A DNA stretch of 64,000 bases from Squalus acanthias (taxonomy: Eukaryota): positions 1,178,001 through 1,242,000 of the forward strand of contig CM059432.1 of assembly GCA_030390025.1 (NCBI GenBank), in the 5' to 3' direction. This document shows, one piece after another, positions 50,546-64,000 of the stretch. Numbering within the stretch: position 1 is the stretch's first letter; every line of letters starts with the position of its first letter. The notes beneath the pieces are model-generated. The model searched no databases and was not told the origin of the DNA. It worked only from the letters and a program-made list of their open reading frames with translations. The position numbers were made by a program, and so were the translations under genes.

Positions 50546-50698
<153 letters not shown>

Positions 50699-54298: not shown

Positions 54299-55065
54299 GG
54301 CCCTGAATTTCCGATCGGAGGCTTCATGCGGGTGGATGCCTCCTATCGGGGAAAAAAATCTACGAACTTACCTGCTGGTTCTGTAGATACCGAGGCTTGC
54401 GATCCTGGGCCTCTCCTCTTCGAAATGCGCAGAGGCCCACGTATCCCAGGGGCGCACGGCGGTTCGCAAGCGCCCCTGGGATCACATGGGCCAGGCAAAC
54501 CAATGGAAGAAGGGAATCCCCCTTCATACTTTTGACAGTTCCGTACGCTCAGAACTGTCAAAAGTATGAATGGGGATGACTGGAAAAATGCACCAACACA
54601 CTGAAATAAATAAAGAAAAACCTTACATATGTAAAATTAATTAAAATATCATTTAATTAAATATTTTAAACAAAAATTTATTTTTTTGTTTGGAACCAGT
54701 GAACGACCAGGCTAGAAAATAACTACCTTATTGCACAGGTTTTTTAATGTTTAAAATTTTTTTTTTCAACCATTTAATGTTATTTTAAACTCTTATGCTG
54801 GTAAAAGCAAGCCTTACTCCTGCTTTTACCAGGCGTAAGAATTCCACGGCCTTTCAGCGGGCGGAAGTTGTGCAAAAAGCGGAACTCTCCACCCGCAGAG
54901 GCCCTTCTCCCGGGGATGCGTGCGATCTGTCAAGAAGATTCTTGACAGATCGCAAGTGCCGGGTTTCAGCGCATGCGCTTCGCATGCCTAAACCCGGCAC
55001 TTGCGCGGCCTCGATGGGTGCGTACACACCTCTTATGCATCCGTAGGGGTCGCAAAATTCGGCCC
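54299..55065. mobile_element. Complete Harbinger-like MITE (767 bp)
   Basis: TIRs ggccctgaattt / aaaattcggccc with ATT TSD (54296-54298, 55066-55068); GC-rich arms with internal hairpins and an AT-rich centre. Confidence 0.8.
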
Positions 55066-56372
55066 ATTAGCATTTAAAAGAGACACTGGGATGGGGGTGG
55101 GGGGAGGAACCACCGAAACGTGGCAGTAAAAATGAGCTGATGAGAAGTACTGAGGGAGGGGGAAGTGAATAAAATGGAACGGGTAACCTGGTGAGTAGGA
55201 AAAGCAGCAGTAATAGAACCAATACAACCAATGAGTTGATGGTAAATATCTGTTTCTGACTAATCCTTTTAGTGTTTACTTGCATGTGATTGGAACCAGT
55301 GAAGGACAAGGCTAGAAAAGAATATGTGGAAGGGATTTTGAAAGTCACTCAATCTGAGGGGGTTAGCGTGGACACAGATAGACCTGATGACAAGGCAGTT
55401 GGAGAAGGTAAGCCTCACCTGTGCGATTGATTACCATTGGCTTAGTGATGGAATTGTCAAAAGCTCCCCTGGGGTTGGGATTTTTTTTAAATTCGTTCAT
55501 GAGATGTGGGCATCGCTCGCAAGGCCAGCATTTATTGCCCACCCCAAATTGCACTCGAAGTTGGTGGTGAGCCGGCTTCTTGAACCGCTGCAGTCTGTGT
55601 GGTGAAGATACTCTCGCAGTGCTGTTATTGTGCATTGTGTTGGGGGTCGGATGAAAATTTAGAGGTTATAAGTATTTAGATGTGTTGTCACGATGTGGAA
55701 TTATTTTTGGACACTAAGGGAATCCAAGGATAGTGCGGAAAAGTGAAGTTAAGATAGAAGATCAGCCATGATCTTATTGAATGGCGGAGCAGGCTCGAGG
55801 GTCCATATGCCCTACTCCTGCTATTTCTTATGTTTGTGTAATCAAAAATAAAGTACCTTTATGCTTGTGCGTGAACTTCGATTAATTCCAAAGCAAAACA
55901 ATGCGGATGCTGGAAATCTGAAATAAAAACAGAAAATGGTGGGAACACTCAGCCCGTCTGGAATTCCACAGATGCTGCCTGACCTGCTGAGTGCTTCCAC
56001 CATTAGAGTAATCGTTATTTAATGTCTCGATAAGAAAGATTTACATTTATACAGCGACCCTCACGACCTCCGCATGTCCCAAAGCGCTTTACAGCCAATG
56101 AAGTACTTTATGAAGTGTAGTCACTGTTTAATGTAGGAAACATGGCAGCCAATTTGGGCACAGCTAGCTCCCACAAACAGCCATATGATAATGACCAGAT
56201 CATTTTTTTTAGTGATGTTGGTTGAGGGATAAATATTGGCCAGGACACCAGGGATAACTCCCCTGCTCTTCAAAATAGTGGTCATGATGCGGAGATGCCG
56301 GTGTTGGACTGGGGTGGACAAAATTGAGAGGTCGCACAACACCAGGTTATAGTCCAACAGTTTTATTTGAAA

Positions 56373-56414
56373 TCACAAGCTTTCGGAGCTATCGATTGCT
56401 CCTTCCTCAGGTGA
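56373..56414 (-). ncRNA. Minimal type I hammerhead ribozyme motif (inverted copy)
   Basis: Exact reverse complement of 56936-56977. Confidence 0.8.
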
Positions 56415-56935
56415 AGTAAATTAGATACAGAATCGCCAAAGCATATATAGATAGAAAACAAAGCATGTGTACCTTACAATTGCAGACCACTAAATTAAAT
56501 CATCCTGACTATCTGCCGAGGTGTGATAAAGATAAAGCCAAGTTCCGCACTCATGAAGACGGTCTCAATCGGGATCTTGGGTTTATGTCACGATACATGA
56601 CGTGATCCGGACTCGAGTCGTCGTTAGCTTGTTCACAGATGTGATTCCCAGTAAAAAAGTAAAAATTTTCCCAGTAAAAAAGTAAAATTTTTAAAGCTTT
56701 TCGTTTTACATACAGACGGCAGCTTTTGACACGTTAGAACCCCTGCGACTACACCTCATTGTCTCAGTTGTATCTTGCTATGTCTTTGATGTGGTACCTT
56801 CCTGGCTGACTTAATTAACTTTATCACACCTCGGCAGATAGTCAGGATGATTTAATTTAGTGGTCTGCAATTGTAAGGTACACATGCTTTGTTTTCTATC
56901 TATATATGCTTTGGCGATTCTGTATCTAATTTACT

Positions 56936-56977
56936 TCACCTGAGGAAGGAGCAATCGATAGCTCCGAAAGCTTGTGA
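56936..56977 (+). ncRNA. Minimal type I hammerhead ribozyme motif
   Basis: tcac-CTGAGGA-A-GGAGC-aatcgata-GCTCC-GAAA-GC-TT-gtga: stem I, conserved core, 5-bp stem II, palindromic AGCT stem III; AATAAA at 56983. Confidence 0.8.
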
Positions 56978-57115
56978 TTTCAAATAAAACTGTTGGACTA
57001 TAACCTGGTGTTGTGCGACCTCTCAATTTTTTCTTCAAAATAGTGCCATGGGATCCTTTACGTCTACCGGAGAGAGCAGACGGGGCCTCGGTTTAACGCC
57101 TTGGCCGAAAGACAG

Positions 57116-57914
57116 CACCTCCAACACTGCAGCACTCTTTCAGTACTGCCCCTCCGACAGTGTAGTGCACCCTTAGTACTGTCCCTCCAACAGTGCGGCG
57201 CTCCCTCAGTACTGCTCCTCCGACAGTGCGGCGCTCCCTCAGTCCTGACCCTCCGACAGTGCGGCGCTCCCTCAGTACTGTCCCTCCGACAGTGCGGCGC
57301 TCCCTCAGTACTGCCCCTCCGACAGTGCAGCCCTCCCTCAGTACTGTCCCTCCGACAGTGCAGCGCTCCCTCAGTCCTGACCCTCCGACAGTGCGGCGCT
57401 CCCTCAGTACTGTCCCTCCGACAGTGCAGCCCTCCCTCAGTACTGTCCCTCCGACAGTGCAGCGCTCCCTCAGTCCTGACCCTCCGACAGTGCGGCGCTC
57501 CCTCAGTACCGTCCCTCCGACAGTGCGGCGCTCCCTCAGTACCGCCCCTCTGACAGTGCGGCGCTCCCTCAGTACTGCCCCCTCCGACAGTGCAGAGCTC
57601 CCTCAGTACTGCCCCTCCGACAGTGAGGCGCTCCCTCAGTACTGCCCCTCCGACAGTGAGGCACTCCCTCAGTACTGCCCCCTCCGACAGTGCGGCGCTC
57701 CCTCAGTACTGCCCCCTCCGACAGTGCGGCGCTCCCTCAGTACTGCCCCTCCGACAGTGCAGCACTCCCTCAGTACTGCCCCTCCGACAGTGCAGCTCTC
57801 CCTCAGTACTGCCCCACCGACAGTGCGGCGCTCCCTCAGTACTGCCCCTCCGACAGTGCGGCGCTCCCTCAGTACTGCCCCTCCGACAGTGAGGCGCTCC
57901 CTCAGTACTGCACT
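57116..57914. repeat. About 24 x 33-bp minisatellite (ctccgacagtgcggcgctccctcagtactgccc) derived from the DeuSINE core
   Basis: Head-to-tail units without spacers; produces the 11-aa periodic ORFs in the track. Confidence 0.93.
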
Positions 57915-58104
57915 GCGAGTGTCAGCCTAGATTTTTATGCTGAAGTCCCTCAGTGGGATAGCAGGTTCTCTCTCTTTAACAGTAGGAGTGCGGGAAAGTG
58001 TATAGGTTGGAATCCCAGTGCAATTCTTCCTGTAATACGCACACTGGGGGAAATGCGCCTTTTTAATAGAGAGCCTGGGTTCAGGGGTTCCCTCATAAAA
58101 TCAA

Positions 58105-58560
58105 CCCAGCTGGCGGCCAAGGGGAGGGGCGTGGTCTGAGTTGACGGGGGCGTGGTCTGAGTTGACTGACAGCAGGCGGCGTGCTTTGATTTGATTGGCA
58201 GGCGGTGAGGGGGCGTGGTTTGCGTTGATTGCCATGCTGGGTGGGCGCGGTGCGAGGTGATTGGCGGGCCGGCGTGCCCGCTGAGCTGGCGCTGACGCGG
58301 ACAATCGCCCTCTGTGCGGGGGGCGGGGTCGGGTCGGGGTCGCGCGGCGCCGGCCGTTTCATTTCAAAACGCGTTGCGCATCCGCGAGAGGCGACAGCGA
58401 CGGGAAGCCGGCCGGCCCAGGCGGAGAGAAGCGCGCAGTGTCAGAGTACCGAGAGAATCAGAGAGTCAGAACAAGGGAGACAGAGTCAGAGCATCAGCTG
58501 GGGGGTCACTGGAATCCACTTCTCCACACAGCCACCCACAGGTGTTTGCTGCTCTCATAG
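58105..58560 (+). promoter_or_regulatory. CpG-island promoter and probable non-coding first exon of the next gene
   Basis: Dense CpG; GGGGCGTGGT at 58126, 58147, 58210; GGGGCGGGG at 58320; ATTGG (reverse CCAAT) at 58194 and 58260; candidate donor ag|gtgaga at 58561. Strand is inferred. Confidence 0.7.
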
Positions 58561-58599
58561 GTGAGAGGAAACACCTGGAGATATGGTCAATGTAGTATC

Positions 58600-61500
58600 T
58601 GTGGGGGATATGGGGGTCTATATACAGTGTGGGGATATGGGGGTCTATATACAGTGTGGGGGATATGGGGGTTTATATACAGTGTGGGGGATATGGGGAT
58701 CTATATACAGTGGGGGGATATGGGGGTCTATATACAGTGTGGGGGATATGGGGGTTTATATACAGTGGGGGATATGGGGGTCTATATACAGTGTGGGGGA
58801 TATGGGGTCTATATACAGTGTGTGGGGGGATATGGGGGTCTATATACAGTGTGTGGGGGGATATGGGGGTCTATATACAGTGTGTGGGGGGATATGGGGG
58901 CCTATATACAGTGTGGGGGATATGGGGGTCTATATACAGTGTGTGGGGGGATATGGGGGTCTATATACAGTGTGGGGGATATGGGGGTCTATATACAGTG
59001 TGGGGATATGGGGGTCTATATACAGTGTGAGGGGGATATGGGGGTCTATATACAGTGTGGGGGATATGGGGGTCTATATACAGTGTGGGGGATATGGGGG
59101 TCTATATACAGTGTGGGGGATATGGGGGTCTATATACAGTGTGGGGGATATGGGGGTCTATATACAGTGTGTGGGGATATGGGGGTCTATATACAGTGTG
59201 GGGGGATATGGGGGTCTATATACAGTGTGGGGGGATATGGGGGTCTATATACAGTGTGTGGGGGATATGGGGGTCTATATACAGTGTGGGGGATATGGGG
59301 GTCTATATACAGTGTGTGGGGGATATGGGGGTCTATATACAGTGTGGGGGATATGGGGGTCTATATACAGTGTGGGGGATATGGGGGTCTATATACAGTA
59401 TGGGGATATGGGGGTCTATATACAGTGTGGGGGATATGGGGGTCTATATACAGTGTGTGGGTGATGGGGGTCTATATACAGTGTGGGGGGATATGGGGGT
59501 CTATATACAGTGTGGGGGATATGGGGGTCTATATACAGTGTGGGGGATATGGGGGTCTATATACAGTGTGGGGGATATGGGGGTCTATATACAGTGTGGG
59601 GGATATGGGGGTCTATATACAGTCTGGGGATATGGGGTCTATATACAGTGTGGGGGATATGGGGGTCTATATACAGTGTGAGGGGGATATGGGGTCTATA
59701 TACAGTGTGGGGATATGGGGGTCTATATACAGTGTGTGGGGGTCTATATACAGTGTGGGAGATATGGGGGTCTACATACAGTGTGTGGGGGATATGGGGG
59801 TCTATATACAGTGTGGGGGATATGGGGGTCTACATACAGTGTGGGGGATATGGGGGTCTATATACAGTGCGTGGGACATGGGTCTATATACAGTGTGGGG
59901 GATATGGGGGTCTACATACAGTGTGTGGGGGATATGGGGGTCTATATACAGTGTGGGGGATATGGGGTCTATATACAGTGCGTGGGACATGGGTCTATAT
60001 ACAGTGTGGGGATATGGGGGTCTATATACAGTGTGTGGGGGTCTATATACAGTGTGGGGGATATGGGGGTCTACATACAGTGTGTGGGGGATATGGGGGT
60101 CTACATACAGTGTGTGGGGGATATGGGGGTCTATATACAGTGTGTGGGGGATATGGGGGTCTATATACAGTGTGTGGGGGATATGGGGGTCTATATACAG
60201 TGTGTGGGGGATATGGGGGTCTATATACAGTGTGTGGGGGATATGGGGGTCTATATACAGTGTGTGGGGATATGGGGGTCTATATACCGTGTGGGGGATA
60301 TGGGGGTCTATATACAGTGTGGGGGATATGGGGGTCTATATACAGTGTGTGGGGGATATGGGGGTCTATATACAGTGTGTGGGGGATATGGGGGTCTATA
60401 TACAGTGTGGGGGGATATGGGGGTCTATATACAGTGTGGGGGGGATATGGGGGTCTATATACAGTGTGTGGGGGATATGGGGGTCTATATACAGTGTATG
60501 GGGGATATGGGGGTCTATATACAGTGTGGGGGATATGGGGGTCTATATACAGTGTGGGGGATATGGGGGTCTATATACAGTATGGGGATATGGGAGTCTA
60601 TATACAGTGTGGGGATATGGGGGTCTATATACAGTGGGGATATGGGGGTCTATATACAGTGTGGGGGATATGGGTCTATACACAGTCTGGGGGATATGGG
60701 GGTCTATATACAGTGCGGGATATGGGAGTCTATATACAGTGTGGGGATATGGGGGTCTATATACAGTGTGGGGATATGGGGGTCTATATACAGTGTGGGG
60801 GATATGGGGGTCTATATGCAGTAAGGGGATATGGGGGTCTATATACAGTGTGGGGGATATGGGGGTCTATATACAGTGTGGGGGATATGGGGGTCTATAT
60901 ACAGTGTGGGGGGATATGGGGGTCTATATACAGTGTGGGGGATATGGGGGTCTATATACAGTGTGGGGGATATGGGGGTCTATATACAGTGTGGGGGATA
61001 TGGGGGTCTATATACAGTGTGGGGGGATATGGGGGTCTATATACAGTGGGGGATATGGGGGTCTATATACAGTATGGGGATATGGGGGTCTATATACAGT
61101 GTGGGGGATATGGGGGTCTATATACAGTGTGGGGGATATGGGGGTCTATATACAGTGTGTGGGTGATGGGGGTCTATATACAGTGTGGGGGGATATGGGG
61201 GTCTATATACAGTGTGGGGGATATGGGGGTCTATATACAGTGTGGGGGATATGGGGGTCTATATACAGTGTGGGGGATATGGGGGTCTATATACAGTGTG
61301 GGGGATATGGGGGTCTACATACAGTGTGTGGGGGATATGGGGGTCTATATACAGTGTGGGGGATATGGGGGTCTACATACAGTGTGGGGGATATGGGGGT
61401 CTATATACAGTGCGTGGGACATGGGTCTATATACAGTGTGGGGGATATGGGGGTCTACATACAGTGTGTGGGGGATATGGGGGTCTATATACAGTGTGGG

Positions 61501-64000
61501 GGATATGGGGGTCTATATACAGTGTGTGGGGGATATGGGGGTCTATATACAGTGTGTGGGGGTTATGGGGGTCTATATACAGTGCGTGGGACATGGGTCT
61601 ATATACAGTGTGGGGATATGGGGGTCTACATACAGTGTGTGGGGGATATGGGGGTCTATATACAGTGTGGGGGGGATATGGGGGTCTATATACAGTGTGT
61701 GGGGGATATGGGGGTCTATATACAGTGTGTGGGGGATATGGGGGTCTATATACAGTGTGTGGGGATATGGGGGTCTATATACCGTGTGGGGGATATGGGG
61801 GTCTATATACAGTGTGGGGGATATGGGGTCTATATACAGTGTGTGGGGGATATGGGGGTCTATATACAGTGTGGGGGGGATATGGGGGTCTATATACAGT
61901 GTGGGGGATATGGGGGTCTATATACAGTGTGGGGGATATGGGGGTCTATATACAGTATGGGGATATGGGGGTCTATATACAGTGTGGGGGATATGGGTCT
62001 ATATACAGCCTGGGGGATATGGGGGTCTATATACAGTGCGTGGGACATGGGTCTATATACAGTCTGGGGGATATGGGGGTCCATATACAGTGCGGGATAT
62101 GGGAGTCTATATACAGTGTGGGGATATGGGGGTCTATATACAGTGTGGGGATATGGGGGTCTATATACAGTGTGAGGGATATGGGGGTCTATATACAGTA
62201 TGGGGATATGGGGGTCTATATACAGTGTGGGGGATATGGGGGTCTATATACAGTGTGGGGGATATGGGGGTCTATATACAGTGTGGGGGATATGGGGGTC
62301 TATATACAGTGTGGGGGATATGGGGGTCTATATACAGTGGGGGGATATGGGGGTCTATATACAGTGTGGGGGATATGGGGGTCTATATACAGTATGGGGA
62401 TATGGGGGTCTATATACAGTGTGCGGGATATGGGGGTCTATATACAGTGTGGGGGATATGGGGGTCTATATACAGTGTGTGGGGGATATGGGGGTCTATA
62501 TACAGTGTGGGGGGATATGGGGGTCTATATACAGTGTGGGGGATATGGGGGTCTATATACAGTGTGGGGGATATGGGGGTCTATATACAGTCTGGGGATA
62601 TGGGGGTCTATATACAGTGCGTGGGACATGGGTCTATATACAGTGTGGGGGATATGGGGGTCTATATACAGTGTGGGGGATATGGGGGTCTATATACAGT
62701 GTGGGGGATATGGGGGTCTATATACAGTGTGGGGGATATGGGGGTCTATATACAGTGTGAGGGGGATATGGGGGTCTATATACAGTGTGAGGGCGATATG
62801 CGGGTCTATATACAGTGTGGGGGATATGCGGGTCTATATACAGTGTGGGGGATATGGGGGTCTATATACAGTGTGGGGATATGGGGGGCTATATGCAGTG
62901 TGGGGATATGGGAGTATATACAGTGTGTGGGGGATATGCGGGTCTATATACAGTGTGGGGGATATGGGGGTCTATATGCAGTGTGGGGATATGGGAGTAT
63001 ATACAGTGTGTGGGGGATATGCGGGTCTATATACAGTGTGGGGATATGGGGGTCTATATACAGTGTGGGGGATATGGGGGTCTATATACAGTGTGGGGGA
63101 TATGGGGGTCTATATACAGTGTGGGGATATGCGGGTCTATATACAGTGTGGGGATATGGGGGTCTATATACAGTGTGGGGGATATGGGGGTCTATATACA
63201 GTGTGGGGGATATGCGGGTCTATATACAGTGTGGGGATATGGGGGGCTATATGCAGTGTGGGGATATGCGAGTATATACAGTGTGTGGGGGATATGCGGG
63301 TCTATATACAGTGTGGGGGATATGGGGGTCTATATACAGTGTGTGGGGATATGGGGGTCTATATACAGTGTGTGGGGGATATGGGGGTCTATATACAGTG
63401 TGTGGGGGATATGGGGGTCTATATACAGTGTGTGGGGATATGGGAGTCTATATACAGTGTGGGGGATATGGGGGTCTATATACAGTGTGAGGGGGATCTG
63501 GGGGTCTATATACAGTGTGAGGGGGATATGCGGGTCTATATACAGTGTGGGGGATATGGGGTTCTATATACAGTGTGGGGGATATGGGGGTCTATATACA
63601 GTGTGGGGATATGGGGGTCTATATACAGTGTGGGGGTTAGGGGGTCTATATACAGTGTGGGGGATATGGGGGTCTATATACAGTGTGGGGGATATGGGGG
63701 TCTATATACAGTGTGGGGATATGGGGGTCTATATACAGTGTGGGGGATATGGGGGTCTATATACAGTGTGGGGATATGGGGGTCTATATACAGTGTGGGG
63801 ATATGGGGGTCTATATACAGTGTGGGGGATATGGGGGTCTATATACAGTGTGGGGATATGGGGGTCTATATACAGTGTGGGGATATGGGGGTCTATATAC
63901 AGTGTGGGGGATATGGGGGTCTATATACAGTGTGGGGGATATGGGGGTCTATATACAGTGTGGGGATATGGGGGTCTATATACAGTGTGAGGGGGATATG
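58600..64000. repeat. G-rich minisatellite, consensus 28-bp gtgtgggggatatgggggtctatataca, more than 5.4 kb, runs off the window end
   Basis: Continuous tandem array with unit-length variants from G-run and GT slippage. Confidence 0.98.

Follow-up and report, generated by a model that had tools for sequence, protein, structure and literature searches.

The two oppositely oriented hammerhead ribozyme motifs found in a 64,000-nt stretch of the Squalus acanthias genome (assembly GCA_030390025.1, contig CM059432.1, positions 1,178,001 to 1,242,000; hereafter the window) are the two ends of one recent 5'-truncated Penelope-like insertion of ~750 bp, which occupies positions 56281-57031. The best explanation, and in our judgment a very likely one, is that a high-copy Penelope-like element (PLE) inserted here recently in truncated form together with an inverted copy of its 3' end, the motif pair being a probably neutral by-product of integration; we infer neutrality from the youth and the abundance of such insertions. 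The locus itself is of little weight, being one among many copies of a structure that has already been described, and the family matters more. The origin of the tandem or inverted pLTRs and of the tail in Penelope elements has been called unresolved (Craig et al. 2021, PMC8557442), and in a family as young as this one, insertions in the tens of thousands, together with clean target-site duplications (TSDs) and intact ORFs, make this origin testable by counting.

Direct reading of the letters bears out what a first-pass annotation of the window had said about the motifs themselves. The core letters CUGAGGA and GAAA, the stem II strands GGAGC/GCUCC and the palindromic AGCU are all in place, an additional A follows the CUGAGGA box at position 56947, the CUU triplet at the predicted cut ends at 56973 (at 56377 in the minus-strand copy), AATAAA is found at 56983-56988, and the plus-strand motif is identical at all 42 nt to the reverse strand of its partner. 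The motifs lie in two inverted arms of 219 nt, 56317-56535 and 56815-57033, that are 99% complementary and are separated by a spacer of 279 nt; the 212 bp of perfect complementarity that had been claimed hold over the segments given in Table 1, and the sole mismatches of the longer arms are at 56818 and 57031. The assignment to the minimal hammerheads of Penelope pLTRs, with a palindromic stem III, is supported as well: a minimal motif, an extra nucleotide, a palindrome and dual motifs on opposite strands 100-700 bp apart are all described for metazoan PLE hammerheads (Cervera & De la Pena 2014, PMC4209133). The extra A, considered as an oddity of this particular motif, was rejected as such on the same authority (PMC4209133); helix II has 5 bp here, whereas 7-8 are given for the Schistosoma PLE hammerhead in that paper. 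An Rfam scan of 55500-58000 did not corroborate the hammerhead reading, as it gave no hammerhead match at E<=5 for either motif, likely because the motif is without stem III, and the sole match that it returned was a chance one within the neighbouring minisatellite.

Table 1. Features of the insertion and its surroundings, in window coordinates
Feature	Position	Strand	Remarks
Last coding exon of TTC39-family gene	50609-50698	+	5.6 kb upstream of insertion
Target-site duplication, left copy	56267-56280	+	14 bp
PLE tail	56281-56319	-	39 nt: 5' UTR and ORF start codon; left arm only
Inverted 5'-truncated pLTR arm	56320-56531	-	Complementary to 56819-57030 at all 212 bp
Predicted hammerhead motif 1 (minimal type I)	56373-56414	-	42 nt; predicted cut after 56377; sequence reading
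Inversion junction	56532-56535		TGATA common to both cDNA ends, and short duplicated GATAAA
Element ORF end, 22 codons and stop (GIY-YIG endonuclease C-terminus)	56537-56605	+	Start of spacer
Sense copy 3' UTR / pLTR	56606-57030	+	Stops at U-tract, without tail
Predicted hammerhead motif 2 (minimal type I)	56936-56977	+	42 nt; predicted cut after 56973; sequence reading
Target-site duplication, right copy	57032-57045	+	14 bp
CpG-rich, GC-box/CCAAT-type promoter-like stretch	about 58125-58450	.	1.1 kb downstream of insertion

The three features on which a Penelope-like identity depends, namely a TSD, the tail and ORF identity, are all present. The first-pass annotation mentions neither the TSD, nor the tail, nor the remnant of the endonuclease. 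The tail sequence continues into an ORF of 892 aa in the full-length copies L038 and L039, and the window is 99.0% identical to L038 over 497 nt that comprise the ORF end and the 3' UTR/pLTR; a Pfam search with the 22-aa ORF remnant alone gave no match. The final 6 nt of the left TSD copy also match element ORF codons 2-4, a microhomology that leaves the boundary ambiguous over 56275-56280, and the letters at the inversion junction are consistent with microhomology-mediated joining. The target of the insertion is itself a high-copy repeat. Two minor features of the element may be recorded here. The first is a 23-bp tandem duplication in the 3' UTR (56645-56690), which is common to most sister copies. 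The second is a set of splice-like signals noted by eye: the ORF start is immediately preceded by a CTCAAT that resembles a branch point, by a pyrimidine tract and by CAG, and the pLTR contains GT donors upstream of them. They were placed at 56306-56338 (minus strand), which is the tail-arm equivalent of 57012-57043, and at 56874-56882. Judged from these signals, a 5' UTR intron could contain the hammerhead, as in Drosophila Penelope.

At the level of the family, the sister copy L038 has an intact ORF of 892 aa with an RVT_1 match (E 1.9e-08) and a GIY-YIG match (E 1.4e-04) whose 22.5 bits fall 0.1 bit below the curated cut-off of 22.6. Locus and family together thus display the characters of EN+ Penelope-like elements, i.e., an ORF with the reverse transcriptase followed by a C-terminal GIY-YIG domain, a truncated inverted pLTR, a one-sided tail of 30-40 bp and a short TSD. 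The likeness to published EN+ elements (Craig et al. 2021, PMC8557442; Arkhipova et al. 2013, PMC3846280) extends to the 5' truncation, to the adjoining inverted truncated copy that yields flanking inverted repeats, to the tail of 30-40 bp at one end with a short TSD, and to the single ORF of the same domain order. Both papers, and a curation guide (PMC8969392), describe a truncated copy in inverted orientation and a tail confined to one end; the TSD is described in PMC3846280. As far as these accounts extend, the differences are that here 22 codons rather than a full ORF lie between the arms, that the TSD measures 14 bp, against 8-10 bp in those elements, and that the present family is far more numerous. 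A Cys cluster, identified by eye, precedes the GIY-YIG motif in the RT-EN linker of the family ORF; such a Cys motif is described for Neptune and Nematis (PMC8557442), and the cluster suggests that the family may belong to the Neptune clade. The copies L038 and L039 are themselves inverted insertions, with tandem, near full-length arms and long open frames, and the upstream pLTR of L038 starts 3 nt before the hammerhead.

This is a young and very large family, with copies 99-100% identical and tens of thousands of insertions. In the DNA search, 40 copies were scored among 278 candidates, and each was 99-100% identical. The exact 42-mer occurs 3,570 times in the genome (0 for the control), and a relaxed hammerhead pattern has 77,601 matches, or ~21 per Mb (9 for the reversed control), both genome counts being possibly inflated by unplaced contigs. 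The relaxed matches, which span several subfamilies differing in loop II, are so far above their control that the motif cannot be due to chance. They also far exceed the ~4,000 reported for coelacanth and the ~9,000 for Xenopus, obtained with different search methods (PMC4209133). Among the first 100 matches listed, all on contig C1, the relaxed motif formed 28 outward pairs (56 matches) and 2 inward neighbours within 3 kb, and the exact motif, again among the first 100 listed and all on C1, formed 18 outward pairs (36 matches) and 1 inward within 3.5 kb. Extrapolation from these matches yields roughly 20,000 relaxed and ~640 exact pairs in the genome. The inverted hammerhead pair is accordingly a routine product of the family.

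The motif is a real conserved element, whose cleavage is predicted from its sequence. We aligned 21 motifs (20 distinct), namely that of the window and those of 20 of 30 loci sampled by position, mostly one per pair. In the 20 distinct motifs 96.1% of the stem cells are paired, compared with 17-50% in slid controls, and one stem I pair alternates between C-G (10), U-A (8) and U-G (1). Stem and core conservation and covariation across genomic copies, one of the points on which the first-pass annotation had staked its reading, are therefore present at the level of the family, the covariation consisting of this one stem I pair among related sequences. Stem II shows one-sided wobble changes only and has a single unpaired cell, the length of loop II ranges between 3 and 9 nt, and the outermost pair of stem I is disrupted in 4/20. 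The search pattern fixed most core letters, so that core conservation among its matches is no independent test; position 17, which the pattern left free, is U or C in 30/30 loci. Two further consensus features of the PLE minimal hammerhead, also listed in PMC4209133, are present here, although the pattern behind the 77,601 matches fixed both and that count is no independent test of them. Related PLE motifs cleave weakly as dimers and not at all as monomers in the experiments reported in PMC4209133, dimer cleavage is summarised in PMC6765202, and the anole element PAc is cleaved only in the presence of the element's protein, cleavage being dispensable for insertion in vitro (PMC11167929). The hammerhead would likely serve the element only in tandem copies on the same strand, by dimer or protein-assisted cleavage.

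Both motifs of the inverted pair face outward, and by this layout a transcript entering from either side meets an antisense arm first and a ribozyme second. The first-pass annotation had proposed that read-through RNA masks the ribozyme, and predicted folding agrees: the 212-bp duplex is modelled at -396 kcal/mol and the motif at -12, and the stem II pair probability is below 1e-6 in both directions. In RNA starting within the spacer, predicted folding recovers stem II (0.92-0.95) and hardly any of stem I (0.08). When two motifs were co-folded without constraint, the catalytic dimer was not recovered, and this prediction was set aside. With a single sense motif per transcript, formation of a dimer in cis is excluded, and because synthesis reaches the antisense arm before the ribozyme whichever strand is transcribed, masking would be permanent and there would be no switching. 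At this locus each transcript would comprise an antisense and then one sense motif, locked in a duplex and inactive, and RNA read through the locus would amount to a commonplace repeat hairpin, open to editing or silencing. The models give the inverted pair an off state with no evident on state.

Such a hairpin, if transcribed, might feed endo-siRNA production or A-to-I editing and so contribute to Penelope silencing or exert an incidental effect on the neighbouring promoter, and we consider this rather unlikely, though the least unlikely of the alternatives. A perfect duplex of 212 bp is predicted, and nascent transcripts often extend a few kb beyond the poly(A) site. In transformed Drosophila siRNAs map to inverted Penelope regions (PMC3681739), and long inverted repeats as a dsRNA source link the present hairpins to the rearranged Drosophila Penelope copies of that paper. 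On the other hand, thousands of equivalent hairpins are likely to exist, so that this locus would not be special. The siRNA/ADAR idea put forward for it in the first-pass annotation is plausible but generic, having already been described for Penelope inverted repeats (PMC3681739). It concerns an effect of the insertion, as distinct from a switch under selection, and can be reconciled with the recent truncated insertion that we prefer. A search of sequencing runs listed no RNA run containing the stretch. Over 55850-56810, where contigs from other copies predominated, the one presumed RNA run mirrored the DNA runs, and an A>G difference at 56456, considered as a sign of RNA editing, was rejected, as the same change occurs in DNA runs. 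At the scale of the genome, if the hairpins, roughly 20,000 in number and perfect or nearly so, are transcribed, they would correspond, for editing and dsRNA sensing, to the inverted pairs formed by Alu elements.

How the inverted structure arose was approached by resolving the ends of many insertions. Two DNA searches provided 43 non-redundant loci, 25 with outward pairs according to a script and 18 without; at least two of the latter (L028 and L047) were missed by the script, as BLAST finds an inverted arm in them. After removal of L038 and L039, whose arms continue into the ORF, 23 inverted insertions were resolved. The ends are mixed in 23/23: at one, the tail end, the sequence follows the element for 37-49 letters past the anchor, and at the other, the U-tract end, for 1-6. 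An exact TSD of 11-14 bp is present in 22/23 and one of 9 bp in the remaining case. The query behind the first 30 loci was biased towards tail-less, T-rich ends. In the second sample, comprising 8 pairs among the 30 positional loci, the ends are again mixed in 8/8, with a TSD of 11-14 bp in 7/8 and a 6-bp exact core in one. Thus one tail end and one U-tract end were found in 31/31 resolved inverted insertions from both samples. At the tail end, the overlap between TSD and element (6 nt at the 56281 locus) has a mean of 2.4 nt versus 0.75 nt with a random cut point, a value that 0/5000 simulations reach, and the excess holds when shared targets are collapsed to 18. Truncation points were also considered as clustering at the hammerhead cut site, a candidate that was rejected as the arm starts are scattered.

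The uniformly mixed ends and the excess of microhomology at the tail end together suggest twin priming at two sites. The GIY-YIG endonuclease would make two staggered nicks ~13 bp apart, one nicked strand would prime reverse transcription at the U-tract, and the other would prime ~39 nt further 3', at the ORF start, aided by a few bases of homology; both cDNAs would end early (~495 and ~251 nt at this locus) and would then be joined at microhomology (TGATA). If true, such a scheme would explain the inverted pLTRs, the one-sided tail and a TSD of 12-14 bp in one step. We regard the matter as evenly poised for the composite proposal that priming is asymmetric in this way (at the U-tract on one strand and, via microhomology, at the start codon on the other) and that it has left roughly 20,000 self-masking hammerhead hairpins, so many ribozyme motifs and so much potential dsRNA as would set a record. 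PAc, a Poseidon element of Anolis (Frangieh et al. 2024, PMC11167929), is alike in that two RT start sites close to the pLTR-ORF junction delimit its tail, in that both target strands are cut and extended, and in that the pLTR contains a hammerhead. Its start sites are ~111-118 nt inside the ORF (PMC11167929), whereas the tail here ends at the start codon, and the RT-EN linker of the present ORF is rich in Cys, a character described for Neptune. The in vitro data reported for PAc (PMC11167929) show no strand difference in starts and no target homology, unlike the present pattern in which the ends always differ and microhomology is in excess, and this counts against our best explanation. Much of the anatomy is already published, namely the inverted copy, the tail, the extra A, the opposite-strand hammerhead pairs and the siRNAs from Penelope inverted repeats. 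In the published literature covered by our search, which left most subscription journals and Repbase reports outside, we found neither an asymmetric twin-priming model nor an account of this family, and the available portions of PMC6155905 and bioRxiv 10.64898/2026.07.22.740005 hold nothing on the family.

A different origin of the inverted copy, in which one cDNA or antisense RNA folded back or primed itself in place of two primings at two nicks, appears improbable to us. Self-priming from an antisense template was proposed for inverted copies by Arkhipova et al., in bdelloid Penelope elements with junction palindromes (PMC3846280), and some pairs in our samples are indeed nearly spacer-less, being 35-70 bp apart. 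However, in 31/31 insertions each arm adjoins its own TSD copy and has its end at a different fixed point of the RNA, the U-tract or the ORF start; the tail-bearing arm has 39 nt that are missing from the other arm and therefore cannot be its copy; and the longer arm can be either one. Several observations on target sites were made along with these. Independent-looking insertions share a target site inside other abundant repeats (L001/L017/L036, L002/L030, L007/L035, L043/L053 and L051/L067/L072), and most TSDs begin with T at the U-tract end, which suggests sequence-selective nicking or priming. In L021/L022 the inverted part amounts to just ~10 nt of tail end beside a 13-bp TSD, a minimal form of the two-ended anatomy; L021 and L022 have flanks in common and resemble a segmental duplicate.

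The surroundings of the insertion bear on the proposal that it acts as a built-in switch, i.e., that the host has exapted the pair to toggle between active ribozyme and masked duplex and so to control TTC39 read-through or the downstream promoter. Exons of a TTC39-family gene, which we take to be TTC39C and not A or B, lie on the plus strand within the window. The downstream CpG-rich stretch would be the promoter of a gene with an RIIa-domain exon ~37 kb beyond it on the plus strand, presumably a CABYR-like gene. The position of the insertion, between this gene end and the promoter-like stretch at the distances given in Table 1, and the intactness of both motifs speak for such a switch, which we nevertheless hold to be hardly credible. 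The motifs are intact because the insertion is young (arms 100% identical, family 99-100%), and the pair is too young to show signs of selection. It is moreover one of the roughly 20,000 relaxed pairs extrapolated above, so that an equivalent recurs genome-wide; the antisense arm precedes the ribozyme whichever way the locus is read, with the stem II pairing reduced as described; a single sense motif per transcript makes a dimer in cis impossible; and 11 poly(A)-type hexamers, A(A/T)TAAA, intervene between the TTC39 stop and the element. The switch placed by the first-pass annotation between TTC39C and the next promoter is therefore unsupported. Least probable of all, to the point of being negligible, is an assembly artefact in which a fold-back read made a false inverted repeat: no public contig bridges the unique junction among the pieces listed from four runs, a gap that proves nothing, while the 14-bp TSD, the asymmetric tail, the non-palindromic spacer of 279 nt and the same anatomy across several subfamilies all speak against it.

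Other repeats are found close by, and the neighbouring repeats resemble those of cartilaginous fish. Short near-perfect inverted repeats with arms of 16-26 bp lie at 54516-54577 and 54921-55005, and a 33-bp minisatellite occupies 57150-57910, between the insertion and the promoter-like stretch. Directly after the latter follows a G-rich minisatellite of ~9 kb with a unit of 27-30 bp and a GC skew of 0.5-0.7, which extends over 58570-64000 and for ~3.4 kb past the window (L093).
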